Source of the DNA: Eledone cirrhosa
Taxonomy: Eukaryota
Assembly (NCBI GenBank): GCA_964016885.1
Contig: OZ024740.1
Location: 62,434,001 to 62,498,000 of the forward strand
Direction: 5' to 3'
DNA length: 64,000 bases
The notes under the pieces were generated by a model that worked only from the letters and a program-made list of their open reading frames with translations, made no database searches and was not told the origin of the DNA. Below, one piece after another: positions 18,303 through 42,241 of this stretch. Positions within the stretch are counted from its first letter, which is position 1; each line of letters begins with the position of its first letter. A program made the position numbers and the translations under genes.

Positions 18303-18352
18303 TTACAAATTAGTGAATGACATAAATACATATTTAATGACATTAATGTGGT

Positions 18353-18466
18353 CTGAGTTCAAATCCCGTCGAGGTTAACTTTGCCTTTCATCCTTACGGG
18401 GTCGATAAAATAAAGTACCAGTAATGTACTGGGTAATTGCTGGCCTTGTGCCAAAAGTCGAAACAA
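18353..18466 (+). mobile_element. tRNA-derived SINE, 5'-truncated copy
   Basis: CTGAGTTCAAATCCCGTCGAGGTTAACTTTGCCTTTCATCCTTACGGGGTCGATAAAATAAAGTACCAG with B-box GTTCAAATC; five copies in the window. Confidence 0.85.
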
Positions 18467-18589
18467 TTAATGTATAATAAGACATATCAAGGTTTAACAA
18501 GAGACAGTCTGTATAGAATGTAAGAATATATAGTTCGTTAGAGTATCATATTAAAATTTAACAAAAATTTAATAAAAAATTTAATAAAA

Positions 18590-18730
18590 ATTTTATAAAA
18601 ATCATATAAATTTGATAAAAATCATATAAATTTGATAAAAATCATATATACTTGATAAAAATCATATATACTTGATAAAAATCATATATACTTGATAAAA
18701 ATCATATATATTTGATAAAAATCATATATA
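18590..18730. repeat. 20-bp tandem repeat (ATCATATATACTTGATAAAA), about 7 copies
   Basis: Direct reading; lies in the left arm of the foldback at 18715-18975. Confidence 0.9.
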
Positions 18731-19036
18731 TTTCCCTCATATGTATCCTTCACAAATCATGAATACATTTCACCAAATATCGGTGCAGTTGGTATTTTGA
18801 TAACACCATGTGCTTCTCTCGTCTTCAGTTCTGTATGTTAACGGGTGTAAGTTTAGATAGATTGATTCCCTCACTGAAGATCCAGATCGATTATTTAACT
18901 GCACCGATATTTGGTGAAATGTATTCATGTTTTGTGAAGGATACATATAGGGGAAATATATATGATTTTTATCAGGTATTTATATTTAAAACTTTTGTTA
19001 AATTTTGATACGATACGATACTATACTATACGATAC

Positions 19037-19039
<3 letters not shown>

Positions 19040-19083
<44 letters not shown>
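19040..19083 (+). repeat. (AAT)n tract at the left boundary of the retrotransposon stack
   Basis: Direct reading; preceded by ATACTATACGATACT, which recurs before the (AAT)n tract at 23441. Confidence 0.95.
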
Positions 19084-19084
<1 letters not shown>

Positions 19085-19719
19085 TCCTCTCCTCTGTCTA
19101 CACTATATAGAACAGCCAAACTCACCAACACCAGAAACTAGATACACCACCCACCCCATCACCTGTGTACACTAAACACAACAGCCAGATAACGGCATTT
19201 TCACCACCACCGCTCACTACGGCCATCATTACCACCATTATCCCATCACCGCCGCCACCACCCCTTCACTCCCTCACTGCTACCACCGCTACAGCACCAT
19301 CACTACAGTAATACGCTCACATCACCGCCACCACTGCCTCGGTATTGACATCACCACCACCACTGTCTCAGTATCGCTACCGCCGCCAGTCCTCCACTTC
19401 TCCCGGCTGGCTGCTGCCACCACATTATAGAATCCCTACTGCTAAAAAAGAGGAAGGCATCAAAATATATAGATAGACTCAAAAGAAAAAAGAAAAAACA
19501 AACAACAAAACCAAAGCAGCACAGCAACAACAGCAAAAAACGAGAAAAACAAACAGAGAAAAACAAAAACAACCCCCCCCCCCAAACGTAAAGAAAATAA
19601 GAATGAAGAGAGAAGCAGGCGGACGGACAGAGAAGAGGGGGGGAAAAACTAAAACTTAAAAAACAAAAACTAAGTCAGACATTCGAACACTACATTACAC
19701 TGAAACTTATGCTTATTCA

Positions 19720-22700
19720 TTTTTGGGGCCCTTTCTGCCTGTGTGTTTGTTTGTTTATGTGTGTTCGTATACAGCGTGGTGATAATGCCACACAAGGGCC
19801 AAGTGGAATGGCGGATCCACAGATGGCTATGTAACCATACATTCGCCAATCCTCGATAAGACTGTTTAAATATCGAACATAAACAGTTCGAATAACGGTG
19901 AAATGGAGACTAGAACGTCATGTGACAGACTCTCACCCAACAGGTGCCCCCTGGCTCAGCAGCAGGAACCTGACTGTCAACCAAATACTGCTGATGTTGG
20001 AGGAAGGAGAAGAAGGAAAGGAGCCAGACCAACTGGACGAAAGAATTGAATAGAACTGTTATGCAATGTTACCTGAAAAGTAACCCCAAGGAGAGGGGCT
20101 ACAGGAGACGGATGCATAACATCTGGAACGAGATTGGTTTATTTAAATTAGATGAACAAAAATTGGCCGGGCAGGCTCGGGTAATAAGAACTAATGGGTG
20201 GATAAGCGAGCTGGAACTGGAGGAACTGAGCAGAGAGAATGGCTTGGAGATGGCGGGTGTAGTATGCCAGACAAGCGAGCCAGTGGGAAATGAAGGTGAA
20301 GAGGTCCTGAGAACGGAGGAACCACCCGAAGCAGACAATGATCTGAATACTGAGATAAATAATACCTGGAACAGAGATACGGCCACTGAGGAGATGAATG
20401 CTGACGGGCTAGGACAAGATTCGGTTGACATCCTAAATTTAGTGGTAGATGAATTGAACAATGATAGTGGGAGACCTATGAATCTAAGATTTGTAGACAG
20501 GAAAAAGTTAAAAGAAACAACAGCTAAGGTAAACAAAGTCATCCCATACCTTGAGGCGAGGAGCCTTCACCAGTGCAACAATATCCTCAAAGCAACAGCA
20601 AATACGGTGAGGAAACTACTTGGTATAAAAGCGAGAGGAAACAACAGACAAGAAAGAGCAGAGCCGTGGTGGAAGAAGCGACTGAGTGGGCAAATCGGGG
20701 AAATGAGAAATGACATAGGAAAGCTTGAGTCACTACTGAATGGGACACTAAAAAACATAGGCACTAAAAATAGACTGGAAATAAAATACAAAACTAGGAG
20801 GAAAAAGCTAAATATTATCATAGAGGAACTGAAGCAACGCATTGTAGCAAAGAGTGCAAAAATCAGGCGATACGAGAACAGAGTCAGTCAGTATAAACAG
20901 AACCGCATGTTCGACAACAACCAGAAGATGCTGTTTGGACAGCTTGAGGGGAAAGAAAGAGGCAACGACTTGATCCCTGGGGCGGAGCAAACTAAAACAT
21001 TCTGGAGAGGAATATGGGAGCAGGATGTTAGACATAATGTCCAGGCAGGGTGGATTGAGACAGTACAGAGGGAGATCGGTGAGCAGGCACAACAACAAAC
21101 TGATTTGAGTATCACAGTTGAAACTCTTAAGGGGCAGGCCAAAAAACTAACCAACTGGAAATCACAGGGCCCAGATGGTGTGCAGGGGTATTGGATTAAA
21201 CATTTAACATCCCTCCACCCGAAGCTGACGGCCATGTTCAATGACTGCTTGGTGTCGGGTGAGGTGCCAGAGTGGTTGACAAAAGGTACCACAGTTCTGA
21301 TAATGAAAGACCGAATCAAGGGTAATGATGTTACCAACTATAGACCTATCACATGTCTGTCCGTAATGTGGAAACTGTTGACGAGCATTGTGTCTGAGGA
21401 AATCTACCATCACCTCCACACAAACAACTTGTTACCGGACGAACAGAAAGGATGCCGAAAGAAGTCACGTGGTACAAAGGACCAGTTACTTGTTGATAAG
21501 ATGGTAATGGGGAATTGCAGGAGGAGACACACTGATCTTGCCATGGGATGGATAGACTACAGAAAGGCATTTGACATGGTGCCTCATTCTTGGATCACCA
21601 AAAGCCTGGAGATCTTCAGGGTGGCAGATAACATCAGACAGTTGCTGGGCAGGAGTATGGGGTCCTGGGAGACAGAGTTGACATCAACTGGAGTATCCTT
21701 GGGAAGCGTGAAGATCAAGAGAGGTATCTTCCAGGGAGATAGCCTGTCCCCTCTGTTGTTTGTCCTTGCCCTGATGCCCTTGACCATTATGCTGCGAAAA
21801 GTGAGAGCAGGATACAAGTTGGGAAGGGGAGAGCTTACCATCAATCACCTCCTCTTCATGGACGATCTTAAGCTCTTCGGGAAAAGTGAGAAGGAGTTGG
21901 ATGTGCTTGTTGACACTGTCCGTATTTTCAGCAGTGATATATGTATGCAGTTTGGTATTGGTAAATGTGGAGTCATTGTGATGAGGAGGGGTAGGTTGAG
22001 CAGAAGTAACGGGATCCAGATACCAACAGGTGAGATGATAAAGGAAATTGACTCTGAGGAAGGATACAAGTATTTGGGCGTTCTGGAGGCTGATGGCATA
22101 AAGAACAAAAAAATGAAGGAATTGTTAAGAACTGAATACATTCGGAGAGTAAGGAGCGTATTGAAGTCACATCTGAACAGCAGAAATGCCATAAGCGCAG
22201 TAAATTCCCGAGCTGTGTCTATTATTAGGTACAGTGCGGGAATTCTGAGATGGAATGTTGCTGAACAAAAAGAAATGGATAGGAAGACTAGGAAGCTATT
22301 GACTATCTACAACATGTTCCACAAGAGGAGTGATGTCGATAGACTCTACCTAAGGAGATCTGAGGGTGGAAGAGGTCTTATCAGCATAGAGGACTGTGTT
22401 CGGATGGAGAAAAACAACCTATACAAATACGTGACCTATAGTAAGGAGCCAATGCTCAGAACTGTACTGAAGGAGGGGACAGTAGGCCAGGGGATGTCCA
22501 AGGAGGAAATAACATCAAGGAGGAAGAGCAGCCTTAAGGGAAAATCCCTTCATAGTACCTTCTTTGAGAAAACTGAATTTAGAGATCCACAGACATGGAA
22601 CTGGTTGAGAAGAGGAGACCTCAAAAAGGCTACAGAAGGAATGCTAATGGCTGCGCAGGAGCAGGCCCTCAAAACGAAGTGGTTGAAGCACCATATTTAC

Positions 22701-23395
22701 AAGGAGGAGGCTAGCCCACTGTGCAGGATCTGTGGAGAGAGAGAGGAGACTGTGGCTCACATTGTGTCCGAGTGTAAACACCTAGCCCAGACCCACTATA
22801 AGGGCTGGAAACACGATGTGATGGGCAGGGTGATCCACTGGCACCTGTGCAAAGTAAACAATTTACCACATTCTGAGAAATGGTATGAGCATAGGCCAGA
22901 GGCGGTGATGGAGAAAAATCAGGTGAAGGTGCTGTGGGATTTTAGGATACAGACGGACAAAAAACTGGAACACAATAGACCTGACCTGGTGGTTGTGGAC
23001 AAAGAAAAAAGATCGTGTCTGATTGTGGATGTGGCCTGCCCATTCGACACGAGAGTGCAAGAGAAGGAGAGGGAGAAAATTAACCGATACCAGGACCTAA
23101 AGTGGGAGGTGAAAAGGATTTGGAACTGCCATGAAGTCAAAGTGATCCCGATTGTCATAGGCGCACTGGGGACTATCTCCAAAAGTTTCCAGGGATGGTT
23201 AAAGAAAATCGGCCCCTTCACGCTTTTTGGAACGCTTCAAAAGGCATGCTTGCTTGGAACAGCAAGAACCCTCCGATACGTCCTGAATATCTGAGGCTGC
23301 AGGTAGTGGCTTGATATTCAATCCAACGGACTTTCCAGTTAACCAACATCAATGACTGAGATTCAAGGAATAACAACAATAATAATACTATAATA
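19720..23395 (+). mobile_element. Near full-length R4/Dong-clade non-LTR retrotransposon (RLE type); 5' boundary approximate
   Basis: Single long ORF with RT, CCHC and restriction-like endonuclease; about 75 bp of 3'UTR; AAT-rich tail at 23369-23397. Confidence 0.9.
20046..23294 (+). CDS. Dong/R4 protein: reverse transcriptase, CCHC zinc finger and PD-(D/E)XK restriction-like endonuclease (1082 aa; probably starts at ATG 19903 across one frameshift)
   Basis: RT motifs GPDGVQG, NYRPITCL, WIDYRKAFDMVPH, GIFQGDSLSPLLF, HLLFMDDLKLF; CRICGEREETVAHIVSEC; KHD; RPDLVVVD...IVDVACP...EKINRYQDL. An upstream frame from ATG 19903 joins by a 1-nt shift between 19995 and 20030. Confidence 0.93.
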   Translation: MNRTVMQCYLKSNPKERGYRRRMHNIWNEIGLFKLDEQKLAGQARVIRTNGWISELELEELSRENGLEMAGVVCQTSEPVGNEGEEVLRTEEPPEADNDLNTEINNTWNRDTATEEMNADGLGQDSVDILNLVVDELNNDSGRPMNLRFVDRKKLKETTAKVNKVIPYLEARSLHQCNNILKATANTVRKLLGIKARGNNRQERAEPWWKKRLSGQIGEMRNDIGKLESLLNGTLKNIGTKNRLEIKYKTRRKKLNIIIEELKQRIVAKSAKIRRYENRVSQYKQNRMFDNNQKMLFGQLEGKERGNDLIPGAEQTKTFWRGIWEQDVRHNVQAGWIETVQREIGEQAQQQTDLSITVETLKGQAKKLTNWKSQGPDGVQGYWIKHLTSLHPKLTAMFNDCLVSGEVPEWLTKGTTVLIMKDRIKGNDVTNYRPITCLSVMWKLLTSIVSEEIYHHLHTNNLLPDEQKGCRKKSRGTKDQLLVDKMVMGNCRRRHTDLAMGWIDYRKAFDMVPHSWITKSLEIFRVADNIRQLLGRSMGSWETELTSTGVSLGSVKIKRGIFQGDSLSPLLFVLALMPLTIMLRKVRAGYKLGRGELTINHLLFMDDLKLFGKSEKELDVLVDTVRIFSSDICMQFGIGKCGVIVMRRGRLSRSNGIQIPTGEMIKEIDSEEGYKYLGVLEADGIKNKKMKELLRTEYIRRVRSVLKSHLNSRNAISAVNSRAVSIIRYSAGILRWNVAEQKEMDRKTRKLLTIYNMFHKRSDVDRLYLRRSEGGRGLISIEDCVRMEKNNLYKYVTYSKEPMLRTVLKEGTVGQGMSKEEITSRRKSSLKGKSLHSTFFEKTEFRDPQTWNWLRRGDLKKATEGMLMAAQEQALKTKWLKHHIYKEEASPLCRICGEREETVAHIVSECKHLAQTHYKGWKHDVMGRVIHWHLCKVNNLPHSEKWYEHRPEAVMEKNQVKVLWDFRIQTDKKLEHNRPDLVVVDKEKRSCLIVDVACPFDTRVQEKEREKINRYQDLKWEVKRIWNCHEVKVIPIVIGALGTISKSFQGWLKKIGPFTLFGTLQKACLLGTARTLRYVLNI

Positions 23396-23439
23396 ATATA
23401 TATACGATACTATGATATATATACGATACTATACGATAC

Positions 23440-23485
<46 letters not shown>

Positions 23486-23727
23486 TTTTCTTTATTAACC
23501 ACAAGGGTTCACATAAAGTAGACATTAAGGACAGTACAGGACAATACAGGACGGTATAAATGGGCATTTCTGCGTGTAAAAAAACAGAGGTTGAAATAAA
23601 ATAACAAAGAAAAATTCCCCAATAGGGGGGAGACTTCCAAGGGACATTTGTGGAGAAAGCCCATTAAAAGACCACAGTGGCCCTGACCACCAGGGCAAGT
23701 GCCCTCTCCCAGTTTTCCACCTTTAAT

Positions 23728-26700
23728 TTACAGACACATACTCAGAGAAGGCCCATTCATTCGGGCCATACTTGCTTCTCTCACCCATCTTTCAACAAAA
23801 TGCTGGGAAGAGAGCACTTCCCTCTCTACCCTGATTTTCCTTTTCAAATGAAATTTGAAAAAGTTAATCAGGGCATCACCGAAGAGGTAAGTGCTCGTCT
23901 TCAGCTCTTTCAAACGTGTCCACCATACTATCTCTTTCGCCATGGCCACCAGACAGATAAAAACTGCCTGCCCTTCCAGGCTAAAGGAAGGGGGCGGGGC
24001 AATCCTCACGATGGACTCAGCTGATAGCTGGATCAGTCCTACACGTGACAGCAGGTGTTCGACATAAACCCACAAGTCAGCAATTTTCGGACACTGGACG
24101 AGTGCGTGCAGGACGGTTTCGTCGCCCTGCGCGCATCTCGGACATGCCCGGCTGACGGCACCTCCATGCCTGTAGAGTTTATCCCGAACAGGCAAAGCTC
24201 CTCGGTAGCACTGCCAGGCCAGGGATTTCTGGAAGTTGTCCATAGGCCCCGGCCCGAAAGTCCTTCCGAAGAGATTGGCTAGTTGATTTTCGTCGACGCC
24301 TAGAGTTTCTCCAAGTACGTCGTCGCTCTTCCCCTCCACTAATCCCCTATAGAACGCCAAGGTGGAGTTTCCACCGATCACATTGCCCGATTGGTCGAGG
24401 GCTGTGAGCGCCTGAAGACATTCCAGTCTCCAAGCGCTCCCTCTCGGTCTTCGCTTGACCCAGGACTGCAGCTCCGTCAAGGAGACGAGCTGGGGAAAAA
24501 CGTGTCTTGCAAACGGCGACCACACCTGATCACCGTCGAGGAAGAGGTGGAGATGTCGTAGCCTGAGCGCGTGTCTGCGCATCATCAGCCACGGCATGCC
24601 CAGCCCTCCACGTAGCGGGTGTTGACAGCAAATGGACCGCCTGACCATCGGAGCGCGTCCCTTCCACAAGAAGCGAAAGAGCAAACGCTCCAGCGCAGTC
24701 AGGCGGGGCTTAGGACAAGGTACGACGGTCAGGCGGTAGTAGATGACGGACGCGATATACGCGTTAGCCACCTCCGCTCGACCTTTCAGGGATAGCTTCC
24801 TCTCGGCCCATTTCTGGGTGAGAGAAGCCACTCTGCTCGTCACTTCGTCCCAGTGTTTGTCCGTCTGGAGGTCCGGACCGAACCAGATCCCGAGCAATTT
24901 AACTGGTCCGTCCGTCCAGCGCCCGACGACGCTGTTGGACGGCATGGACCTGCCTCTCCAGGTGCCGAGCTGCAGGCCCACTGACTTTTCCTGGTTGATC
25001 ATTGCTCCTGTCACCGCTTCGTATTCTCTTAGTGAAGTGCCAATCGCCTCGATGTGTTTGGCGTTCGACACCACTACGGTGACATCGTCCGCATATGCTG
25101 ACACCGATCTTCCGCATCCTAGTTTGCGCGGGACCCCCCCCACTCAACGTCTCCAGTTTGTGCAGTAATGGCTCGAGAGTCAATACATACAAGAGGGACG
25201 AGAGGGGACATCCTTGGCGGACCGAGCGCATGATGTTGAACGGTTCCGAAAGGTGACCGTTCACTCTCACCACAGAGCAGATGTCGCTGTGCATGGCAGC
25301 CATCCAGCCTCTGAAGACGGGCCCAAAGCCAGCCGCCCCCAGGACTGCCGCTAGGTAACGATGGTCGACCCTATCGAAAGCTTTCGACTGATCTAAATTG
25401 ATCAAGGCCCCCACCGTGCCAGGTTCCCTAGCTACCCTCTCTACGATGTATCGCATGAGGTGGAGGTTGTCGTGGATGGATCTGTCGGGAATGGCGCATG
25501 TCTGCGCCTCTCCCACCAGACCACCAACGACAAGCGCCAACCTCTTTGATAGCACCTTGGCCAAAATCTTGAACTCTGTGTTTAGCAGAGTTATGGGCCT
25601 AAAATTATCTATGCTATCCCCCTTGTTCGGATCCTTTCTCAGCAGTGCCACCGCTCCTCGGCTCACAGAGCTGGGAATTCTCCCGTTCTGTTGCCAGTTG
25701 CAGTAGACGTCCGCCAAGAGGCCTCTGAACAAGTCTGGCATCTGTACGTAAAGTTCATAGGGCAGACCATCCAAACCAGGCGATTTACCCATTGTGCAGC
25801 TAATCATTGCCTCCCGTACTTCAGCGGCTGTTATCGGCTTTTCGCAACACTCCGCCTCAGTGGCCGAGAGCCGCGGCAGTCCGTCGAGGTAGACGCTAAA
25901 GTCCATCCCTCGATCCGGCCCGCCGCTGCCACCGAACAACTGAGCGAAGTGTCGCTGAAAAGCTTCACACATTTGCCCGGGATTGAGTAGCATGCGCCCG
26001 TCGTGGTCCATCAAAGACCGGATCGTGGCTTTGTTTCCACGATGCGCCTCCGTCACTCGGGCCCATTGAACGGCTTTCGTCCCCTCGTGTCTGAGAGCAT
26101 GCACCCTAGCTCTGACAACGCAGCCTTCGTGTTTTGCATTGAAGAATTGGTCAAGGGCCAATTTCGCCGCAAGCACGTCGGTAGCGATGCCTTTGGTAAG
26201 CGCCTCGTCTAATTTTCTAACTAATTCTCCCTCTGCTCTATTTTTCTCTATTGCTAAAGCCTTACTAAACCTAATGGACTCTATTCTAATTGCTCTTTTC
26301 TGAGCAAACCACCACTTGTTGTTGACGATGGCCCCCGTCAACGCCCGCTTAACTAGTTCGCTAATGTGGTCTCTGTAGGCCTTGCGCGCTGGTAAGGACG
26401 CGTTTAGCTTCCAGTAGCCGGGTCCTCGTCTATGAAGCCTATCTAAGTCAAGTACACAGATCACGAATTTGTGGTCCGTGTAGCTGACTATCTTGAATTG
26501 TGGACAGCCTATGCTAGATCTATCTATTTCTCTACAAAATACTCTATCTAGATATGATCTGGATGACCATACGCGATTTGTCCAAGTCCACAGTGGCACA
26601 TTCGGGAAATCCAACGGTATCTGTCAGACAGTTCAAAATGCCTGAGCAGGTTGGTGAGGCTCTTGCACCCTCCTCCCCTATCCGCTAATCCCACACAGTC

Positions 26701-27151
26701 CCAGCGTGCATCTAAGATCCCGTTCCAGTCGCCCACTAACACTAAAGAGCGGGACGTTCCAAGAAAGGTCTCCAGACGCTGGAAGAAATCAGGCCGCCCT
26801 GCTCCTGTCGGGGCATAGACGGCCACTAGCCTGAAAGCTTGCCCGTCTCCGCTGGTCACGTCTAGCACCACCAACTTACCTTCTGAGTCCAGGAAGATGG
26901 CCCGTATGGCGAGATCCAAACCTCTCCGAAAAAGCACAGCAACTCCTTCCCCCCGATCCAGGACGGCTGGGAGATGCGTACACATCGTAGCCGCCGAAGA
27001 TCGGTGCGAAGGCCCGTGCTTCGGAGATTCTGGTCTCGCTGATGGCCACTACATCTATGTTTAGTGACCTGAGGTCGTTGAGCAGGTGGCCCTGCTTCCA
27101 TGACGACCCCAAGCCACGCGCATTTATGCTGCCTATTCTGAGTGAGGTCAT
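23728..27151 (-). pseudogene. ORF2 of Tx1 copy A (APE endonuclease, RT, C-terminal zinc finger) with three frameshifts near 26950, 26612 and 25140
   Basis: ORF pieces 26876-27232, 26548-26985, 24899-26614 and 23728-25143 together reproduce the intact ORF at 29677-33096 almost residue for residue. Confidence 0.92.
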
Positions 27152-27185
27152 GTTGAAATGGAGTGGAAAAGATGGGAAAGACCAC

Positions 27186-29144
27186 TTACCGTACTTCTCG
27201 TAGAGGAAGGATGGTTTGTCCATCCTTTTCACTGCTTGTGGCCTTCTCCAGAAGGATATCCTTATAAATCCTCCTGGAGAGTGTTTGTCGGAAGTCTCCG
27301 ATGTCTTTGGGGAATTTTTGTTTTAGTGTCGTGTACATTTTCTGTGTGATGCGAGTGATTTGTATGTGTGGAGGTGGTGTGAACTTTTGGGTTGTTGTGT
27401 AGTCTTTTTCTGTGATGCTGGTGTTGTGTTGCATGTAGTGTAATAATTGGTTGTTGTTCAAATTTAATGCTGTGTAGTGTGTATCGTTTTGGTTGTTTTG
27501 TTTTGTTTGCGTTTGTTGTGGGTTTGTTTCTATTACGCTTTTTGGTGACTTTTGTGGTGTTGGTGATGGTGGTGTTGGGGTTAATGATGGTGATGGTGTT
27601 GGTGTTTGTGGTGATGGGGTTGGTGATGCTGGTGTGGATGGTGGCATATCTGTCTTAACTTTCTTGTTCGATAATTTATTTGTTTCCCTCTGTATTTTGT
27701 TTTTTGAGGGGGAAGGATGAGAATTTTTTCTTTTTTGGTTTCTTTTTTTTTTCTCTTTTCCTGATACCATTTCCCACTCCTCGTCGTCACAATCTATCTC
27801 CAGTTGCGATAAGCCGGGGAGTGGAAAATCCTCCACAGGCGTTGGTTTTGGTTGTGTCGTGGTGGATGGTGTAGGCGCTGGTGCTAGTTCTGGGGCGTTG
27901 GGTGGTGGTGGTGTTGGTTTTGCTACTGTTGCTGGGGTTGTTGCTGTTACAGTTGCTTCTGTTGTTGCTGCTACAGTTGTTGCTGCTATTTCTGCTGCTG
28001 GTGGTGTTGATGATTGAGTCACTGGGGTGGGTAAGAGAGGTGGCCTCAACCTTTTAGCCTGAGGGCAGAAAGCCCTTAGGTGGGTTCCTTCACCACAAAC
28101 GACACACCTAGGTCTTCTGCCCTCGACGATTACGGTGAGGTGGCTGCCGTCAGTGAGGTCTATTACCTCTGGGATCTCTTCAATGCTTTTATGGTCCGCT
28201 TGGATCAGGAGCTCCATCCCATATCCGGACTAGTTCTCCTGCTTTTCTTTTGCTATTTCTATTATTTTGGTGCTGGCCTCGATGCCGGCGAGGACGGCAG
28301 CCATTAGCCAGGGAATTTCGCTGGCCGGTGGAACGTGGGTCACCCTGATCTTTACAAGTCTCTGTCCACAATAGCTTGGGATGAGTGTGAGGTCGTCACT
28401 TCTTAATGGGGCCATGGAGTGTTCTCTGGCCTCCTGTGGTGTTTCAAAGAACACGTCCACGGTTCCATATTTCTGCCTACGTCTGATGTGGGTTTTTTTG
28501 GCCACACATGTCCCAAAGCTTTTTGGATTTGGGACTCAGATGCCCGTTCCACTCGGCGCGATTTTATGTTTATTGTCCGATAAGACACGGTGCATAGGCG
28601 ACGTTATTCCATTTTATTAGGTGTGTGTGTGTGGGGGTGGTGGGGGTGGGGGGGGTGAGGCTGACCCTGTACCCATCTTTCTTTACCATTCCATTGGCTT
28701 CATCTAATTCTTCCTGAGTTACCTGAATCGCTTCGCACGTTTTTGCTACTTTGGCAAAACTCAGGGTAGTTTTCTTAATTTCATTGTTGCTGTTGTTATT
28801 ATCGTTATTTTTGCTATTGTTAATTTTAGTTTCAGTTGTGGTGGTGGTGGCGTCAGTGGTGTCCCGTGTGGAATAGTTCATTTTGGTTGAATTCATTTCG
28901 ATATCATGAGTTAATTTTTTTTTTCTTTTGTTTCTGTTGTCGCTGTAGTGGTGGTGGTGGTGGTGGTGGCGGCTTTAACACCTGCAGTCATTGGTAATGG
29001 CGGGAAATGAACGTCTGCCTGAGACAAATTAAAAATATTGCTACTGCTTACAATTCCAGTGCTGGGAAACGTAGCAATGTTTACAATGGTGGTGTCGGTG
29101 TGAGGTGTTGGATTGTGAGGAAGGAGTGAATCTGAGTCATCCAT
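27186..29144 (-). pseudogene. ORF1 of Tx1 copy A (gag-like, zinc knuckle CVVCGEGTHLRAFC), several frameshifts
   Basis: Pieces 28911-29144, 28570-28896, 28403-28588, 28230-28505 and 27186-28217 align with copy B ORF1 (SFAKVAK, KSRRVERA, KYGTVDV, PSYCGQ, VEGRRP). Confidence 0.85.
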
Positions 29145-29360
29145 TATTTTTCAAAGAAAAAATTTTTGTTTGATAATTATAAAAAGTTTAAATTTTGGGC
29201 TCAAGGCCCCAATATTTTTGAGTGTCCTTTTCAGAAATCAATTTATGTGCACTTATATATAGTTAACAATAAAAATTTTCCATAAATGGCAATTTTAAAT
29301 AACTGAAAATAATAAACCTTTGCGGAGCTCACGATGATACGATTTACTACGTAGGTCGCC

Positions 29361-29416
<56 letters not shown>

Positions 29417-29676
29417 TTTCTTTATTAACCACAAGGGTTTACATAAAGTAGACATTAAGGACAGTGCAGGACAATGCAGGACGGTACAAATGGGCATTTC
29501 TGCGTGTAAAAAAAAAAAAACAGAGGATGTAACAAAAATAACAATGAAAATAACAATGAAAAATTCCCCAATAGGGGGGAGACTTCGGAGGGACATTTGT
29601 GGAGAAAGCCCAGTAAAAAGCCACAATGACCCTGACCACCAAGGCAAGTGCCCTCTCCCAGTTTTCCACCTTTAAT

Positions 29677-32600
29677 TTACAGATATATGCTCAGAGTAGG
29701 CCCATTCACTCGGGCCATTCTTGCTTCTCTCACCCATCTTTCAACAAAATGCTGGGAAGAGAGCACTTCCCTCTCTACTCTGATTTTCCTTTTCAAATGA
29801 AATTTGAAAAAGTCAATCAGAGCATCACCGAAGAGGTAAGTGCTCGTCTTAAGCCCTTTCAAACGTGTCCACCATACTATCTCTTTCGCCATGGCCACCA
29901 GGCAGATAAAAACTGCCTGCCCTTCCCGGCTAAAGGAGGAGGGCGGGGCAATCCTCACGATGGACTCAGATGATAGCCGGATCCGTCCTAAACGCGACAG
30001 CAGGTGTTCGACATAAACCCACAAGTCAGCAATTTTCGGACACTGGACGAGTGCGTGCAGGACGGTTTCGTCGCCCTGCGCGCATCTCGGACATGCCCGG
30101 CTGACGGCACCTCCATGCCTGTAGAGTTTATCCCGAACTGGCAAGGCTCCTCGGTAGCACTGCCAGGCCAGAGATTTCTGGAAGTTGTCCATAGGCCCTG
30201 GCCCGAAAGTTCTTCCGAAGAGATTGGCTAGTTGATTTTCGTCGACGCCTAGAGTTTCCCCAAGTACGTCGTCGCTCTTCCCCTCCACTAATCCTCTATA
30301 GAACGCCGAGGTGGAGTTTCCACCGATCACATTGCCCGATTGGTCGAGGGCTGTGAGCGCCTGAAGACATTCCAGTCTCCAGGCGCTCCCTCTCGGTCTT
30401 CGCTTGACCCAGGACTGCAGCTCCGTCAAGGAAACGAGCTGGGGAAACACGCGTCTAGCAAACGGCGACCACACCTGATCACCGTCGAGGAAGAGGTGGA
30501 GATGTCGTAGCCTGAGCGCGTGCCTGCGCATCATCAGCCACGGCATGCCCAGCCCTCCACGTAGCGGGTGTTGACAACAGATGGACCGCCTGACCATCGG
30601 AGCGCGTCCCTTCCACAAAAAGCGAAAGAGCAAACGCTCCAGCACAGTCAGGCGAGGCTTAGGACAAGGTACGACGGTCAGGCGGTAGCAGATGACGGAC
30701 GCGATGTACGCGTTAGCCACCTCCGCTCGACCTTTCAGGGATAGCTTCTTCTCCGCCCATTTCTGGGTGAGAGAAGCCACCCTGCTCGTCACCTCGTCCC
30801 AGTTTTTGTCCGTCTGGAGGTCCGGACCGAACCAGACCCCTAGCAATTTAACCGGTCCGTCCGTCCAGCGTCCGACGACGCTGTTGGACGGCATGGACCT
30901 GCCTCTCCAGGTGCCGAGCTGCAGGCCCACTGACTTTTCCTGGTTGATCATTGCTCCTGTCACCGCTTCGTATTCTCTTAGTGTAGTGCCGATCGCCTCG
31001 ATGTGTTTGGCGCTCGACACCACTACGGTGACATCGTCCGCATATGCTGACACTGATCTTCCGCATCCTAGTTCGCGCGGGACTCCCCTCAACGTCTCCA
31101 GTTTGTGCAGTAATGGCTCGAGAGTCAATACGTACAAGAGGGACGAGAGGGGACATCCTTGGCGGACCGAGCGCATGATGTTGAACGGTTCCGACAGGTG
31201 ACCGTTCACTCTCACCACAGAGCAGATGTCGCTGTGCATGGCAGCGATCCAGCCTCTGAAGACGGGCCCAAAGCCAGCCGCCCTCAGGACTGCCGCTAGG
31301 TAACGATGGTCGACCCTATCGAAAGCTTTCGACTGATCTAAATTGATCAAGGACCCACCCGTGCCAGGTTCCCTAGCTACCCTCTCTACGATGTATCGCA
31401 TGAGGTGGAGGTTGTCGTGGATGGATCTGTCGGGAATGGCGCATGTCTGCGCCTCTCCCACCAGACCACCAACGACAAGCGCCAACCTCTTTGCTAGCAC
31501 CTTGGCCAAAATCTTAAACTCTGTGTTTAGCAGAGTTATGGGCCGGAAATTGTCTATGTTATCCCCCTTGTTCGGATCCTTTCTCAGCAGTGCCACCGCT
31601 CCTCGGCTCACAGAACTGGGAATTCTCCCGTTCTGTTGCCAGTTGCAGTAGACGTCCGCCAAGAGGCCTCCGAACAAGTTTGGCATTTGTACGTAAAGTT
31701 CATAGGGCAGACCATCCAAACCAGGCGATTTACCCCTTGTGCAGCCAGTCATTGCCTCCCTTACTTCAGCGGCTGTTATCTGCTTTTCGCAACACTTCGC
31801 CTCAGTGGCCGAGAGCCGCGGCAGTCCGTCGAGGTAGACACTAAAGTCCATCCCTCTACCCGGCCCACCGCTGCCCCCGAACAGCTGAGCGAAGTGTCGC
31901 TGAAAAGCTTCACACATTTTCCCGGGATCGAGTAGCATGCGCCCGTCGTGGTCCACCAAAGACCGGATCGTGGCTTTGTTGCCACGACGCGCCTCCGCCA
32001 CTCGGGCCCATTGAACGGCTTTCGTCCCCTCGTGTCTGAGAGCACGCACCCTTGCTCTGACAACGCAGCCTTCGTGCTTTGCATTGAAGAATTGGTCAAG
32101 GGCCAATTTCGCCGCAAGCACGTCGGTCGCAATGCCTTTGCTAAGCGCCTCGTCTAATTTTGTAACTAGTTCTCCCTCTGCTCTATTTTTCTCTATTGCT
32201 AAAGCCTTACTAAATCTAATCGATTCTATTCTAATCGCTCTTTTCAGAGCAAACCACCACTTGTTGTTGACGATGGCCCCCGTCAACGCCCGCTTAACTA
32301 GTTCGCTAATTCGGTCTCTGTAGGCCTTGCGCGCTGGTAAGGACGCGTTTAGCTTCCAGTAGCCGGGTCCTCGTCTATGAAGCCTATCTAAGTCAAGCAC
32401 ACAGATCACGAATTTGTGGTCCGTGTAGCTGACTATCTTGAATTGTGGACAGCCTATGCTAGACCTATCTATTTCCCTACAAAATACTCTATCTAGATAT
32501 GATCTGGATGACCCTATGCGGTTTGTCCAAGTCCACATTGGCACATTCGGGAAATCCAATCGGTACCTGTCAGACAGTTCAAAACGCCTGAGCAGGTTGG

Positions 32601-33096
32601 TGAGGCTCTTGCACCCTCCACCCCTATCCGCTAATCCCACACAGTCCCAGCGTGCATCTAAGATCCCGTTCCAGTCGCCCACTAACACTAAAGAGCGCGA
32701 CGTTCCAAGAAAGGTCTCCAGACGCCGGAAGAAATCAGGCCGCCCTGCTCCTGTCGGGGCATAGACGGCCACTAGCCTGAAAGCTTGCCCGTCTCCGCTG
32801 GTCACGTCCAGCACCACCAGCTTACCCTCTGGGTCCAGGAAGATGGCCCGTATGGCGAGATCCAAACCTCTCCGAAAAAGTACAGCAACTCCTCCACCGG
32901 ATCCAGGACGGCTGGGAGATGCGTACACATCGTAGCCGCCGAAGATCGGTGCGAAGGCCCGTGCTTCGGAGATTCTGGTCTCGCTGATGGCCACTACATC
33001 TATGTTTAGTGACCTGAGGTCGTTGAGCAGGTGACCCTGCTTCCATGACGACCCCAAGCCACGCGCATTTATGCTGCCTATTCTGAGTGAGGTCAT
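29677..33096 (-). CDS. ORF2p: apurinic-like endonuclease, reverse transcriptase and zf-RVT-type C-terminus (1139 aa, uninterrupted)
   Basis: APE motifs SINARGL, ISET, GGVA, VYAP, VGDWN, YLDRVF, TDH; GPGYWKLN; RT motifs KSPGLDG, NFRPITLLN, LDQSKAFDRVDH, VRQGCPLS, AYADDV; GGLG; CPRC...ETVLHALVQC. Confidence 0.96.
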   Translation of the reverse strand: MTSLRIGSINARGLGSSWKQGHLLNDLRSLNIDVVAISETRISEARAFAPIFGGYDVYASPSRPGSGGGVAVLFRRGLDLAIRAIFLDPEGKLVVLDVTSGDGQAFRLVAVYAPTGAGRPDFFRRLETFLGTSRSLVLVGDWNGILDARWDCVGLADRGGGCKSLTNLLRRFELSDRYRLDFPNVPMWTWTNRIGSSRSYLDRVFCREIDRSSIGCPQFKIVSYTDHKFVICVLDLDRLHRRGPGYWKLNASLPARKAYRDRISELVKRALTGAIVNNKWWFALKRAIRIESIRFSKALAIEKNRAEGELVTKLDEALSKGIATDVLAAKLALDQFFNAKHEGCVVRARVRALRHEGTKAVQWARVAEARRGNKATIRSLVDHDGRMLLDPGKMCEAFQRHFAQLFGGSGGPGRGMDFSVYLDGLPRLSATEAKCCEKQITAAEVREAMTGCTRGKSPGLDGLPYELYVQMPNLFGGLLADVYCNWQQNGRIPSSVSRGAVALLRKDPNKGDNIDNFRPITLLNTEFKILAKVLAKRLALVVGGLVGEAQTCAIPDRSIHDNLHLMRYIVERVAREPGTGGSLINLDQSKAFDRVDHRYLAAVLRAAGFGPVFRGWIAAMHSDICSVVRVNGHLSEPFNIMRSVRQGCPLSSLLYVLTLEPLLHKLETLRGVPRELGCGRSVSAYADDVTVVVSSAKHIEAIGTTLREYEAVTGAMINQEKSVGLQLGTWRGRSMPSNSVVGRWTDGPVKLLGVWFGPDLQTDKNWDEVTSRVASLTQKWAEKKLSLKGRAEVANAYIASVICYRLTVVPCPKPRLTVLERLLFRFLWKGRAPMVRRSICCQHPLRGGLGMPWLMMRRHALRLRHLHLFLDGDQVWSPFARRVFPQLVSLTELQSWVKRRPRGSAWRLECLQALTALDQSGNVIGGNSTSAFYRGLVEGKSDDVLGETLGVDENQLANLFGRTFGPGPMDNFQKSLAWQCYRGALPVRDKLYRHGGAVSRACPRCAQGDETVLHALVQCPKIADLWVYVEHLLSRLGRIRLSSESIVRIAPPSSFSREGQAVFICLVAMAKEIVWWTRLKGLKTSTYLFGDALIDFFKFHLKRKIRVEREVLSSQHFVERWVREARMARVNGPTLSIYL

Positions 33097-33131
33097 GTTT
33101 AAAATAGAGTGGAAAAGATGGGAAAGACCAC

Positions 33132-35229
33132 TTACCGTACTTTTGGTAGAGGAGGGATGGTTTTTACATCCCTTTTCACTTGATCGTCTGGTGAAGGGAC
33201 CGTTGAATCGTCCCTTCGGCTGGTCGTCGGCTCTTCTAAGAGAATGTCTGAGTATACTCTTCGATTGATGGTTCCTCCTAGGTCCCTGAAATCACCAACT
33301 GCGTTGGGGAATTTCGTTTTAATATTTGTGTATTGTTTCTGTGCTATTTTTAGCAGTCTTATGTTAGTTGGCGTTTTGATTGGTGCTGGTATTATGTAGT
33401 CCTGTTGTGAAATGTCTGTGTGTTCAATTATGTAAGTCATTAGTTTCTTGTTGTGTGTATTTATTGCCGTGCATTTGTTTTTCTGGGGGTGGGGTGTGGT
33501 TCTGCTATTTTCTTGTCGTTGTTGCTGGGTGTGTGTGTTTTGTTGTTGTGTTTGCGATGTTGGTGCTTGTGGTGGTGGTGTTGAAGGTGTTGTTGCCGGT
33601 GGGGTTGTCGCCGGTGGTGATGGTGGCGCTAGTGTGGGTGGTGATGGTGTTGGTGTTGTTGCTGCTGTGGGTCTCTTTGCAGTAGACTTTACCCTTTTCT
33701 CATTTCTTTCCTCACTTTTCAAAGGCGACGATGCGCTGCTTCTGCGTTTGTGCCTTCTTACGACCTTTTGCCATCTCTCTCCCACCTCACACTCCATGTC
33801 TGATTCTGTGAGGTCGGGGAGGGGTACCAACTCCACTCTTTCACTTGTTGTTGTTGGTGATGTTTGCACTGGAGTCTCTGTTGCAGCTGCATTTGGTATT
33901 GCTGTTGTTGTTGTTAGTATTTCCACTGCTGCTGCTGTTTTTGATTTCCGTGGAGTGGGTATGGGTGCCACGGGCCTATCGTTCCTGGTTGCCGCTTGTC
34001 CTGTTGCTGGTAGCCGTGGAGCCGGATTCGGAAGGAGGGGGGTTTTCTCCTTTCTCAGGGTCTTCTCGTTGCAGAAGGCCCTGAGGTGAGTCTTCGATCC
34101 ACAGCGAAAGCATTTCGGGCGTTTGCCCTCAACACTTATGGGAAGTTGAGTGCCGTTATCGAAGTCTATCACATCCGGGATAGCTTCGATGCACTCCTGG
34201 TTGGTTTGGATTAGCATCTCAATGGAGGAGCCGACCCAATCTTCTCTTACTTTTTTCTGTACTTGCAGTACAGTTGTTTTGTCCTCGATTCCGACGAGGA
34301 CAGACGCGGCCAGCCAAGAAGGGGTCATTCCGGGGGGGGACGTGGGTCAGTTTGACCCTCACAATTTTTTGCCCACAGTAGGAGGGCACCAACACCATTT
34401 CCTCGCTCCTTAGGGTCACTACTGATTGGGCCTTTGCCTCCTGGGGTGTGGCAAAAAGTACGTCTACGGTGGCATATTTTTTGCCTCGGGTGATGTGCGT
34501 TTTCCGCTGCCACACAGACCCCAAGGCTTTTTGTATTTGGGCCTCTGTGGCTCTTTCCACCCTACGGGATTTTGTACTTACTGTACGGTACGTGACCGTA
34601 CAGTGCTCTTGGGTTTCGAAAAAATTTTTCGCTGCCTTGCAGATTGCTCGGTGTCCGTTCTTTGTCACCATCTTCTTCGCTTCCTCTAATTCCTCATTTG
34701 TTATGAGGATTGTTTCCAAATTTTTCGCAATACCTGCAAATGAGATTGGTTTTTCTCTGCTGTTGTTGTTGTCGTCAGAGCTGCTGGTACTTTTGTTGTT
34801 GCTGCAGGTACTACGACTACTGCCTCCGCCGCTGTTGCTGTGGTTGTTGTTGGTGTTGCTGCTGCTAATGCTGTTGTTGTTTATGCTGCTGGTGATGCTG
34901 TTGCGGCTGCTACTGTTGTTTTCATTGTCACTGTTGCTGTTGTTATTACGGCTGCTACTGCTATTATTCCTGACGTCAGACGAATGAACTGGGTTTTCGT
35001 ATTTCCCGCACACCTGTTTCGTCGCTGTCGTCGTCGTCGTGGAGAAACCTTGCACGCTTTGCACGAGACTTTTATTTTCTTTCGTCGCTTGCGAAAGAGA
35101 AGGGAGGGAGAGAGACACATTTAAAGAAGGGAGGGAGAGAGACAATCTTCTCTCTGCTGTAGTGACGATTGAGGAAAAAGAAGACGGAATGAGTGGGAGT
35201 GACCTATGCAAATTCTTTTTCGTAGCCAT
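33132..35229 (-). CDS. ORF1p of Tx1 copy B, about 698 aa if one base is removed from the G8 run near 34333-34340; CCHC knuckle CFRCGSKTHLRAFC
   Basis: ORFs 34219-35229 and 33132-34328 join as HVPP-GMTPSWL after deleting one C on the coding strand; copy A reads HVPP-ASEIPWL here without a shift. Confidence 0.82.
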
Positions 35230-35470
35230 GTTGTTTTTTTGTTAAAAATAAATATTGGGTACAAAACCCCAATAAGCAGTTATTTAACCACGAAAGGCCA
35301 AATAACGGGCAGAAAGACCCCTCTCACGAGGAGGAGGGTGTTTTTGTCTACAAGTTGGTCTAAGTTTTAAACAATTTACAATTGTTAAAGCGTTCAAAAT
35401 TTACAATACCTTACAGAGCCGAGCCTCCGTCAACCATAGCATTCAATAATAATAATAATAATAATAATAA

Positions 35471-35807
35471 TGTGGATGTAGCCTGCCCATTCGACACGAG
35501 AGTGCAAGAGAAGGAGAGGGAGAAAATTAACCGATACCAGGACTTGAAGTGGGAGGTAAAAAGGATTTGGAACTGCCATGAGGTCAAAGTGGTCCCGATT
35601 GTCATAGGCGCACTAGGTACTATCCCAAGGATGGTTAAAGAAAATTGGTCCCGCCCCGCTTTTTGGAACACTTCAAAAGGCATGCTTGCTGGGAACAGCA
35701 AGAACCCTCCGATACGTCCTGAATATCTGAGGCTGCAGCTAGTGGCTTGATATTCATTTCAACAAACTTTCCAGTTAAATAACATCAATGACTGAGACTT
35801 AAAGAAC
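35471..35807 (+). mobile_element. 5'-truncated copy of the same Dong/R4 family
   Basis: Matches 23024-23370 (VDVACPFDTRVQEKEREKINRYQDLKWEV... plus 3'UTR) with an internal deletion of about 10 bp; (AAT)n on both sides. Confidence 0.95.
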
Positions 35808-35840
<33 letters not shown>

Positions 35841-35842
<2 letters not shown>

Positions 35843-36073
35843 AATTATTGTGTACGGTGCTCAGGTGCACTACAACTCGTCAAAGGTGCATGTATAGTAC
35901 ATAGAATAATATACAAATGTCAGGGAAGTGAATAGTGTATGAGTCATGATATACATGTGTGTATGTGTATGGAGGGGGAACATTAGGTGTAGTGTTGGCG
36001 AATCTAGGGAAGCATGGAGGTTTTAAAGGATGCAGTGTCTCGACAACAAACAACTGATACAGGTAGTTTTTTC
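35841..36073 (-). mobile_element. 3' end of a CR1-type LINE fragment (distal part) with an (ATT)n tail
   Basis: Minus strand continues ...WN|KLPVSVVCCRDTASFKTSM from the piece at 41521-41720, then a 3'UTR and (ATT)n at 35808-35840. Confidence 0.75.
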
Positions 36074-36478
36074 TTTAGAATGTTAGTATCAGTATATAAA
36101 TATTATTAAAAATGACAATAAATGCAGGTGAGTGTTGTGACATGGTTTTACTTCACAGAAGTCAAATAAATTAATAGAAATAAATTTTACCACATGTTGA
36201 TGGTCAGTTGCCGGCGCAGGAATTGCGAGAGGAGTCATCTCTTGACAAGGTCTGAAGTGTTCATCTTGTTGCGGCGTAGGAAGTGAGAGGTCTAATGCGT
36301 TGATGTTCTTAATATATATAGTCCCCAGGGGGACGCAACTCTATTTAGTACATGGATCTGCCACTGGGGGTCGCGGCCGTCACAAAGGGATGCAACTCCG
36401 CTACAGTACCCTCCTCCAGACGATAGGCGAAAAGCCTGAAGGTAACTGTAGCGAACCCACAAGCATGGGCTCCCAGCA

Positions 36479-36699
36479 CAGGCATGAAATATTAACGCAA
36501 AGGTACATGTATAAATCAGGCATGAAATAGTAACGAAAAGGTACATGTATAAATCGGGCATGAAATAGTAACAAAAAGGTACATGTATAAATCAGGCATG
36601 AAATAGTAACGAAAAGGTACATGTATAAATCGGGCATGAAATAGTAACAAAAAGGTACATGTATAAATCAGGCATGAAATAGTAACGAAAAGGTACATG
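36479..36699. repeat. 38-bp tandem repeat (about 5.7 copies) in the Gypsy 3'UTR
   Basis: GGCATGAAATAGTAAC(G/A)AAAAGGTACATGTATAAATC(A/G), with alternating variants. Confidence 0.93.
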
Positions 36700-36879
36700 T
36701 GTACACAGTAATACAATAAAGAGAAAAACAAAAAAGGCGCCAGTGGCCAGTTCACATGAAAACAGTTTGGCAGAGTTTTTTGGGCCAGTGGACTCTTCGA
36801 CCGGAACGGGTCGTGGTCTTGTATGTAGGTGAAGGTGGGGCAGAAGGAGCAGGTATATGCACAATAGAGAAAGAATGGG

Positions 36880-39740: not shown

Positions 39741-39759
39741 CAACTGCCCCCATCAGCGG

Positions 39760-40549
39760 ACCTCTTTGGCGTTTCCCGACTTAGGAAACGAGCAAGGTTG
39801 CACGAAGTGGTTCGCGCTCTCGGCAAATCGCTCATGGTACCAGCATAAAGATGAGCTGGTGACTTGGAGCGGCGTCTAAAAGATTGAGATCTCCCGCGGC
39901 TGCGGGGCGCGAACGGGTACCACACCAGACCTTCATCTTCTGGAGCTCCAGGGTGAGTTCCTGAATGGCCCTCTGCATTGCCATAAAAGCTGAGCTCTCT
40001 GTAGGAGCTGCCGCGCAGATGGCATGGCCAAGTGTGGCCTGAGCTGGTTGGGAAACAGCGGCAAGGGCTTCGCTGCCTCCAGCACCCGTAACTTCGAAAA
40101 CTTTGTCCGTGGAGGCGACAAGCTGATCCACCGTGCAAGTATCCCTAATGGGGGCCAAAATTGCCTGTACGTTGGTCGGTAGGCGCGAGACGAACAACTG
40201 CTTCAGCATGGCAGTTTCCGCTACCGACCCCTCCGTTAGGTCCTTCATTCTCCTTAGGAGGTTCGATGGGGTGCCATCACCGATATGCTCCAGAGCCCTA
40301 AATCTTTTTTTCTGCGGACTGTGCAGTCCGGCTGAGTATTTCAGCCTTCAGGGACTTGTACGTCGCGTCGGTGGGTGTCTCTAACACCAGGTCCTTAATT
40401 GCTGGGATAAATGCCGGCGGAATTGCACTAAGGACCAGAGGACGTTGTTGTGCTTCGTCAATTCTGTTGGCCTCGAAAAATGCTTCGAGATGGGCGAACC
40501 ATAACCTTACGTCGCCCGTGTACGTAGGTAGAACAGAATGAGATGCCAT
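39760..40549 (-). pseudogene. Gypsy gag, frameshifted
   Basis: Lies between PBS and protease; MASHSVLPTYTGDVRLWFAHLEAFF... and LKQLFVSRLPTNVQAIL resemble gag of invertebrate Gypsy elements. Confidence 0.75.
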
Positions 40550-41097
40550 TGGTATACCGTAGGTAATCTGCAGAAAATCGTTTCCGTTTGGAAAAATGTC
40601 CCCTACACAAGGGAAAAGGAAAAAAAAATCGCTTGTTTTTCTCTGTTAAACAACTGGACAGGAAAAAGAATGCTTCCGAGACAACATGTAAAGGAGCCAC
40701 TAACCGAGCGATGTCATTAACAAGGTATAGGCAGGGAATTTAAAACTAAAACCAACATGGCGGACTATTTCGCGCCAAAAACACTATTGACGGAGAAGAA
40801 ATTCGCCATCTTGTTATCCTCAAACATTTTAGCCAGAGAAAAGAAGCAAAGGAGAAAAAACATTCATACAATTGTTGTTTTGTGTTTGTGTGTAAATAAA
40901 TGGAATGTTTGCTTTCCACATATGAGGAGTTTGATTGTAAAACGTTATAGATAAAGATGCTGAAATCAGTAAAATACATCCAGATCGGAATGAAGCGTGT
41001 TGTTCTGTATTAAATATTTTCTTCTTTCTCTTTTTTTTTTATATACACATGGTACCGTTTCCCATTCTTTTTTTTTTTTTTTTTTTTTTTTTAAAAA

Positions 41098-41110
41098 CGT
41101 CAGGTCACCA
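41098..41110 (-). promoter_or_regulatory. Primer binding site, probably tRNA-Trp
   Basis: TGGTGACCTGACG lies 1 nt after the 5' LTR and resembles the tRNA-Trp PBS TGGTGACCCCGACG. Confidence 0.7.
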
Positions 41111-41520
41111 ATTTAGAATGTTAGTATCAGTATATATATATTATTAAGAATGACAATAAATGCAGGTGAGTGTTGTGACATGGTTTTACTTCACAGAAGT
41201 CAAATAAATTAATAGAAATAATTTTTACCACATGTTGATGGTCAGTTGGTCACAACTCCCAGACTGGAGTGTGTAGAGAAGAACAGAAATCTTCTCTTGG
41301 AAAGGTTCAAGTGTTTCTTTAGGCTGCCGGCGCAGGAATTGCGAGAGGAGTCATCTCTTGACAAGGTCTGAAGTGTTCATCTTGTTGCGGCGTAGGAAGT
41401 GAGAGGTCTAATGCGTTGATGTTCTTAAATATATAGTCCCCAGGGGGACGCAACTCCATTTAGTACATGGATCTGCCACTGGAGGTCGCGGCCGTCACAA
41501 AGGGACGCAACTCCGCTACA

Positions 41521-41720
41521 GTTCCATGCTGCAGCAACTCTGAGCGTGAAAAAATGTTTCCGAAAGTCATGGGAGCTGTGCTGTTTTCTGACTTTGTGGG
41601 CATGTCCACGTGTGTTAGACACATGGAAATCAAAAAGGTACTCAGGGTTGTTGTTGGCAAGATGGTTAATAATTTTGTGGGTGTTTACAAAGTCAGTTGC
41701 CAGGCGTCGGAGCTTCAATG
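41521..41720 (-). mobile_element. CR1-type LINE ORF2 C-terminal fragment (proximal part, interrupted by the Gypsy)
   Basis: LRRLATDFVNTHKII...SNTRGHAHKVRKQHSSHDFRKHFFTLRVAAAWN matches the CR1 C-terminal pattern TRGH...FFxxRVxxxWNxLP. Confidence 0.8.

Positions 41721-41837: not shown

Positions 41838-41916
<79 letters not shown>

Positions 41917-42182: not shown

Positions 42183-42241
<59 letters not shown>

Follow-up and report, generated by a model that had tools for sequence, protein, structure and literature searches.

A 64,000-nucleotide stretch of the Eledone cirrhosa genome (contig OZ024740.1; G000:C1:62434001-62498000 of the 3.0-Gb assembly GCA_964016885.1), here called the window and numbered from its first letter, raises the question of why retrotransposons without long terminal repeats (LTRs), belonging to two different endonuclease classes, lie in one stack joined by (AAT)n tracts, and whether these tracts are the target or only the tails of the insertions. 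An R4/Dong-like element and a truncated second one on the plus strand enclose two minus-strand Tx1-like elements, TxA and TxB (working labels for Tx1-like elements with 5' module A or 5' module B), in the order and on the strands given by an earlier note on this DNA, and all five junction tracts that it listed were found in the window. The family names (R4/Dong-like, Tx1-like and CR1) are likewise working labels, based on domain layout, target and sequence motifs. As judged from the junctions, the R4/Dong-like and the Tx1-like elements very probably both occupy (AAT)n in opposite orientations, likely by way of nicks on opposite strands, with repeated insertion building up mixed stacks.

Two endonuclease classes on one repeat

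The large R4/Dong-like element contains an open reading frame (ORF) of 1099 aa (19995-23294, +) with reverse transcriptase (RT), a CCHC-type finger and a PD..D..K endonuclease motif; it matched RVT_1 and, weakly, zf-RVT, showed no Exo_endo_phos domain, which represents the apurinic/apyrimidinic endonuclease (APE), and had R2 proteins as its best solved relatives, including a weak match across the endonuclease stretch. This is the layout of the R4/Dong clade (one ORF, RT, C-terminal CCHC finger and PD-(D/E)xK restriction-like endonuclease (RLE), without APE), as is the insertion into TAA/AAT repeats, and we take the element to be R4/Dong from its motifs and the AAT target; a named R4/Dong relative was found neither among the best 120 of 284 protein matches nor in the clusters or Atlas rows. 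The ~640 bp at 19084-19720, described earlier as unassigned, proved to belong to the Dong 5' untranslated region (UTR; 19084 to ~19900 by colinearity with the other fetched copies), and their candidacy as a separate element was rejected, as they run straight into the Dong body in other copies. Full Dong copies start ~254 bp farther upstream than the window copy, directly after (AAT)n. A hepatitis delta virus (HDV)-like ribozyme at the Dong 5' end was matched neither by Rfam in six loci nor by a simple home-made descriptor, which had no positive control; membership of the clade does not call for such a ribozyme. A second R4-type family, 39% identical in protein to the first, uses the same AAT target. 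One Dong copy (L270:4584-9162) has its 5' 2.76 kb inverted with a tract at the outer end, which would be an RLE counterpart of the twin-priming pattern of L1.

The minus-strand TxB carries an open ORF2 (ATG near 33096, end at 29677) with APE, RT and zinc finger; the Tx1-like ORF2 domains were Exo_endo_phos, RVT_1 and zf-RVT, with L1-type endonucleases as the best structure matches, and the whole corresponds to the Tx1-clade layout of two ORFs, the second with APE endonuclease, RT and a C-terminal zinc finger. The ORF1 of both modules A and B contains a CX2CX4HX4C zinc knuckle, and in TxB one frameshift splits ORF1, for which no Pfam match was obtained in Tx1-like copies; a CCHC knuckle in ORF1 is typical of Tx1 rather than of mammalian L1. 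Named close relatives of the Tx1-like proteins were absent from the matches and clusters. Both Tx1 elements had been called full length, and that they are; frameshifts, however, interrupt both ORFs of the left copy and ORF1 of the right copy. TxA and TxB are ~96% identical from ~80 bp before ORF2 through the 3' end, and only ~50-60% identical across the 5' UTR and ORF1, so one ORF2 lineage carries two 5' modules, resembling the 5' module replacement known from mammalian L1. Several distinct 5' ends were also observed among Tx1-type copies (L012, L022, L092, L119, L126, L314).

The flanks were examined in element copies taken as the best 30-40 matches of 133-1951 candidates, a choice biased to young copies whose counts are not copy numbers; the Tx1 end counts refer, for each search, to the best 30 among 40 scored matches, excluding the copies of the window. 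A tract adjoins 29/29 Tx1 3' ends, 28/29 TxA 5' ends and 29/29 TxB 5' ends, and in these 86 of 87 cases it is (ATT)n, not the (TC)n or (TTC)n of Kibi and Koshi; several further Tx1-type 5' and 3' ends share AAT tracts. Randomly 5'-truncated Dong copies have a tract at the 5' junction in 27/31 rows and, in a second sample anchored on the 3' end (16/39 loci ran past the 1.5 kb fetched, leaving 23), in 18/23, compared with 1/30 for the control, truncated copies of a CR1 family that has an (ATT)n tail and lacks target specificity. For truncated Tx1 copies the raw rows gave a 5' tract in 10/23; once three duplicate rows and two full copies split by later inserts had been taken out and three copies added, 21 distinct copies remained, 11 with a 5' tract, seven fused to an R4 piece and three joined to other DNA. 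In 400 kb of genome background (40 evenly spaced 10-kb samples), (AAT)>=4 makes up 0.12%, and a tract of at least three units lies within 6 bp upstream of a random position on a given strand in 0.13% of cases. At this background the row of five tract junctions is not due to chance, and since the 5' flanks carry the tract far above both the CR1 control and the background, the tract is a target and not merely a tail. Mostly non-(AAT)n 5' flanks, named in the earlier note as the outcome that would count against its proposal, were thus not what the full-length TxA and TxB and the truncated Dong copies displayed. The flanking tracts have medians of 7.5-11 units against a median of 3 for CR1 tails, which, with tracts on both sides, fits the regeneration of target on the flanks proposed before. 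Unique-sequence target duplications were sought within 140 bp, and none was convincing in 53 Tx1 and 44 Dong rows.

The sense strand reads (AAT)n at both ends of Dong and (ATT)n at both ends of Tx1, so that unlike classes stand head-to-head or tail-to-tail and like classes head-to-tail. This orientation rule is kept in 177/182 tract-joined pairs (a few double counts are possible from overlapping loci), as anticipated from the window. Under the logic of target-primed reverse transcription, opposite insert orientation means first nicks on opposite strands, and the two enzymes would therefore first nick opposite strands. The 5' junction is in phase ATTATT in 40/44 TxA and 37/41 TxB motif hits. 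The earlier proposal that an RLE and an APE family converged on one trinucleotide target in opposite orientations is thereby supported by the flanks and the pairs, the cleavage chemistry being deduced from them.

The following course would account for these patterns. A randomly inserting CR1 copy would leave a short (ATT)n tail; Dong would nick the T-rich strand and prime on its own (AAU)n-ended RNA; Tx1 would nick the A-rich strand, where the ATT|G phase of full-length 5' junctions points to TpA as the probable site, and prime on its (AUU)n-ended RNA; tail copying, target duplication and slippage would leave a tract on either side of each insert, so that targets multiply; and some arrays would acquire local duplications as well.

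The stack is one case of a genome-wide pattern, seen at dozens of places checked, and its 17 kb are not exceptional. A three-element stack occurred in 1/40 of the evenly spaced samples, and four of the eight tracts of at least five units in those samples adjoin these families; beyond the earlier note, the users of AAT include the second R4 family and more Tx1 families, and stacks are common. At G000:C4:222.06-222.13 Mb (the C4 array) at least 11 TxB-type copies lie head-to-tail, ten compared copies being 4-86 substitutions apart and eight keeping both frames open. In addition, identical 3703-bp and 488-bp blocks surround inserts at G000:C3:57.459-57.479 Mb (L166-L168) and in the C4 array (L153, L155), respectively, where the inserts differ from their neighbours by ~50 substitutions; very long tract-to-tract target duplication, recombination or assembly error may be responsible.

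Several points weigh against the occupation of (AAT)n by both classes: 10 of the 21 truncated Tx1 copies have no 5' tract (the seven R4-fused ones and the three beside other DNA), nick strand and phase are deduced from junctions, the best-match sample leans young and its counts cannot serve as copy numbers, the clade names are supported by domain layout and sequence motifs, and the stack is known from the assembled sequence. The 11/21 figure, together with the short motif near +26 to +40 that is alike in the Dong, TxA and TxB 5' ends, would fit a case in which only one class targets the repeat, while the other is carried along by the enzymes of the first or, through read-through, has the tract in its own RNA. 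This is very unlikely, as trans-mobilisation by a single enzyme would yield a single orientation instead of two, a tract copied at the 5' end of the RNA cannot occur at random truncation points, yet does so in both classes, and copies with open frames exist in both. That the tracts are 3' tails with slippage only, the elements clustering passively in repeat-rich regions of low selection, agrees with the (ATT)n tails of CR1 and of a SINE (short interspersed nuclear element) here and with the richness of the genome in microsatellites; it is nevertheless already largely refuted and even less probable, given that the 5' tracts on full and randomly truncated copies far exceed the CR1 control and the background, that passive clustering predicts no orientation rule, and that AT and AC repeats, far commoner than AAT, are yet absent from the junctions. 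The least credible alternative, an artefact of assembly or a tandem duplication at microsatellites, can draw on identical units elsewhere, without a single difference along 3703 bp at G000:C3:57.46 Mb or along 488 bp in the C4 array. Against it, the two Tx1 copies differ by ~4-5% in ORF2 and in their 5' modules, the Dong copies are ~90% alike, the two halves of the host repeat and of CR1 remain colinear across the insertion, and every junction type is seen again on other chromosomes.

Fusions of Tx1 and R4 pieces without a tract

In the seven distinct tract-less loci, the truncated Tx1 and the truncated R4 meet head-to-head with their tails outward, and most of the junctions show 1-5 nt of microhomology. 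Three further candidates were dropped: L260 as a low-complexity match, L353 as degenerate and without an outer tract, and L336, where ~3 AAT units are still present. The seven head-to-head fusions stand against one tail-to-tail fusion despite equally common neighbour types (47:48; P 0.03), from which it follows that most fusions arise at insertion. Next to a truncated R4 the tract is missing in 7/13 cases if the Tx1 is truncated and in 0/30 if it is whole (P 5e-5). A Dong/Tx1 fusion dispersed as a mobile family was rejected, as 40 scored candidates out of 587 yielded the L076 junction twice, both times in the C4 array, and 40 out of 4630 yielded the L025 junction a single time.

A slight preference is given to sequential insertion, in which a Tx1 copy arriving later beside an existing R4 would be 5'-truncated, the short tract would be lost, and microhomology would then join the two. 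The microhomology agrees with it, as do the three truncated Tx1 copies that lost the tract beside non-R4 DNA; with so short a tract, a modest deletion during the later Tx1 insertion would look identical. Partner-type tests add to this, as they lose significance when ambiguous cases are included (P 0.04-0.41). The nearest-copy identities of the two halves agree in L017, L279 and L263 and disagree in L025, L238 and L076; in L025 the identity to the nearest genomic match is 98% for the Dong half and 99% for the Tx1 half, with ~7/351 against 3/577 differences as estimated from bit scores (P ~0.05), so that the Dong half looks like the older of the two, which favours sequential insertion and counts against simultaneous priming. 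Against sequential insertion, none of the tract-less junctions observed had an intact partner end, and 13/13 tract-less Tx1-Tx1 joints in ORF2 or the 3' UTR skip forward by 37-533 bp, as internal deletions do.

A more doubtful possibility is dual priming, in which a Dong RNA and a Tx1 RNA would be reverse-transcribed inward from the two sides of one break and joined. With the two classes priming on opposite strands of a single repeat, the end that one enzyme makes could serve the other as primer. The fusions have the corresponding layout (halves of different RNAs, each 5'-truncated, in head-to-head position with outward tails and inner microhomology), and the loss of the tract beside a truncated R4 only where the Tx1 is truncated too agrees with dual priming. 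Twin priming of one RNA is excluded because the halves belong to unrelated families. Sequential insertion, accompanied by a small deletion, fits the fusions at least as well.

History and surroundings of the stack

The features of the stack and its borders are given in Table 1. The leftmost tract is (ATA)15.3 at 19038-19083, and the second AAT-type tract consists of two parts, 23369-23398 and 23441-23484; it was present as claimed, and is not pure, as the left boundary motif, ATACGATACTAT(AAT)14, occurs in it again, the sequences at 19018-19081 and 23421-23484 being 98% identical across 64 nt. The boundary motif on both sides of the large Dong would fit insertion into an existing tract with a ~60-bp duplication.

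Table 1. Features of the stack and adjoining sequence (window positions).
Feature	Position	Strand	Remark
Older dispersed repeat of foldback type (left part) that hosts the whole insertion	18466..19016	.	resumes ~41718
GATAC/TATAC slippage repeats and (AAT)15, left boundary of the stack	19008..19083	+	missing from paralogous host repeats
R4/Dong-like family 1 element, lacking ~254 bp of its 5' end	19084..23368	+	nearest sampled copy differs by 0.7% substitutions
Dong tail followed by a scrambled junction and, with (AAT)14, the left boundary motif again	23369..23484	+	likely a target-site duplication with slippage
Tx1-like element, module A, full length, ORF1 and ORF2 frameshifted	23485..29360	-	2.4-2.8% to nearest sampled copy
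(AAT)18 linking TxA 5' end and TxB 3' end	29361..29414	+	
Tx1-like element, module B, full length	29415..35444	-	0.8% to nearest sampled copy
Approximate TxA/TxB identity switch point	27233 (TxA), ~33180 (TxB)	-	~80 bp upstream of ORF2 start
(AAT)9 linking TxB 5' end and truncated Dong	35445..35471	+	
5'-truncated Dong 3' end, 336 bp, different subfamily	35472..35807	+	~90% identical to large Dong copy
(AAT)11 joining Dong tail to CR1 tail	35808..35840	+	
3' end of a CR1-type long interspersed nuclear element (LINE) with (ATT)n tail, likely tract founder	35841..36073	-	
LTR retrotransposon splitting the CR1 fragment, ends approximate	36074..41520	-	RT, RNase H and integrase pieces; broken frames
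Remaining 5' part of the CR1 fragment	41521..41720	-	5' junction without tract, rejoins host repeat

The elements stand where the earlier note placed them, but the run continues rightward to the CR1 3' end at 35841. All 19 other fetched copies of the host repeat at 18466-19016 continue past this point without an (AAT)n tract, and their continuation matches the window from ~41718; between the two halves lie the stack, the CR1 3' fragment with its (ATT)n tail and the LTR element that splits CR1. The CR1 assignment relies on a CR1-type RT and C-terminus in the translations of longer copies, whose tails have a median of 3 units, and the founder fragment is presumed to be of the CR1 clade from these motifs. 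In the simplest order, the tract was probably born here as the CR1 tail and the specialists inserted afterwards; the unequal distances of the stack pieces to their nearest sampled relatives (0.7, 2.4-2.8, 0.8, 2.0 and 2.6%) would fit separate insertion events.

Several side observations concern the elements. An abundant SINE-like repeat (window 18345-18475, many loci) has an (ATT) tail and, in stack loci, often a 5' tract too, and may be mobilised by Tx1; other recurring unnamed ends that adjoin tracts (L025, L052, L057, L258, L265, L266, L296) are perhaps further AAT-associated families. The motif RCTCY..RYAWR, defined after the sequences had been seen, occurs at +26 to +40 in the first 70 nt of Dong, TxA and TxB (background ~2% per 50 bp) and is absent from the second R4 family; it is possibly an internal promoter element common to both classes. 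When run X6 was compared with window 29415-35444, 61,662 contigs matched TxB against 903 for Dong, contig depth not being copy number, and these numbers suggest a very large and diverse Tx1 expansion in another organism. Among other public runs, X4 and X5 carry TxB at single-digit depth and X22 in one read; because this support is so low, the organism labels of the public runs are not evidence of host range or transfer. The runs listed as carriers include no RNA, and their contigs cannot reach across the stack.

Elsewhere in the window were observed a 13-kb satellite at 2940-16068 (202 copies of a 65-bp unit, 93% matches, strong C/G strand skew), a local inverted duplication at 41620-42470 that spans the CR1 5' junction and the host repeat, a 38-bp tandem repeat at 36441-36741 inside the LTR element, and a 27-bp tandem array at 43519-44488. 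A Rfam scan of the window gave no match at gathering score.

Comparison with known systems

Dong belongs to the R4 lineage, and the Bombyx mori element self-cleaves at its 5' end through an HDV-like ribozyme (PMC3774820); the target of Dong in the snail Biomphalaria glabrata and others is the TAA/AAT microsatellite (PMC3812793). The elements described here resemble Dong of Bombyx mori, Anopheles gambiae and Biomphalaria glabrata in the AAT target, the single ORF, the RT and the C-terminal restriction-like endonuclease, and differ in that two families, 39% identical, share the target and no 5' HDV-like ribozyme was matched by Rfam or the simple descriptor. The Tx1-clade APE families Kibi, Koshi and those of crocodilians use (TC)n, (TTC)n, (TTCC)n and (TTTC)n (PMC4494074). 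The Tx1-like elements of the window are, like these, microsatellite-associated APE elements; unlike in Kibi and Koshi, the target is (ATT)n/(AAT)n and is common to an RLE family in opposite orientation. In Octopus vulgaris, Dong-R4 and L1-Tx1 are listed as recently active, with 1129 and 421 insertions (PMC13282606; also PMC8967140), and a term search of the main text of the former did not return the words 'target' and 'nested'.

Dong on TAA and the convergence of RLE and APE on one target are already known. Neither an AAT-targeting Tx1 nor an RLE/APE fusion was found in those portions of the literature that were searched, and Repbase or Kojima and Fujiwara 2004 could already record an AAT-targeting Tx1; one that shares its target in opposite orientation with an RLE family is probably unreported. 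Within that literature, (AAT)n is added to the targets of Tx1-type APE endonucleases. A three-step ecology, with random LINEs seeding tracts, two specialist classes colonising opposite strands and inserts renewing the target, can explain local retrotransposon piles in a 3-Gb genome, and an unrelated endonuclease pair reading one repeat on opposite strands offers material for work on structure and specificity.

Dual priming has been postulated for primate L1, two mRNAs priming two nicks with an internal microhomology junction (PMC2837659). The L1 study, with one family involved, could not separate dual from twin priming (PMC2837659), whereas the halves here are unrelated; the fusions are therefore a natural test bed for dual priming and, if it is true, the hybrids would be its first natural proof, moreover of an RLE with an APE element. 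A parallel to the shared target is that of Keno (Tx1, APE) and Utopia (RLE), which evolved the same U2 small nuclear RNA (snRNA) gene target in parallel (PMC4640811). In both systems an APE and an RLE lineage meet on one target; Keno and Utopia have identical 3' flanks, the same orientation and a gene as target, whereas the two classes in Eledone cirrhosa stand in opposite orientation on a repeat that their own insertions regenerate.

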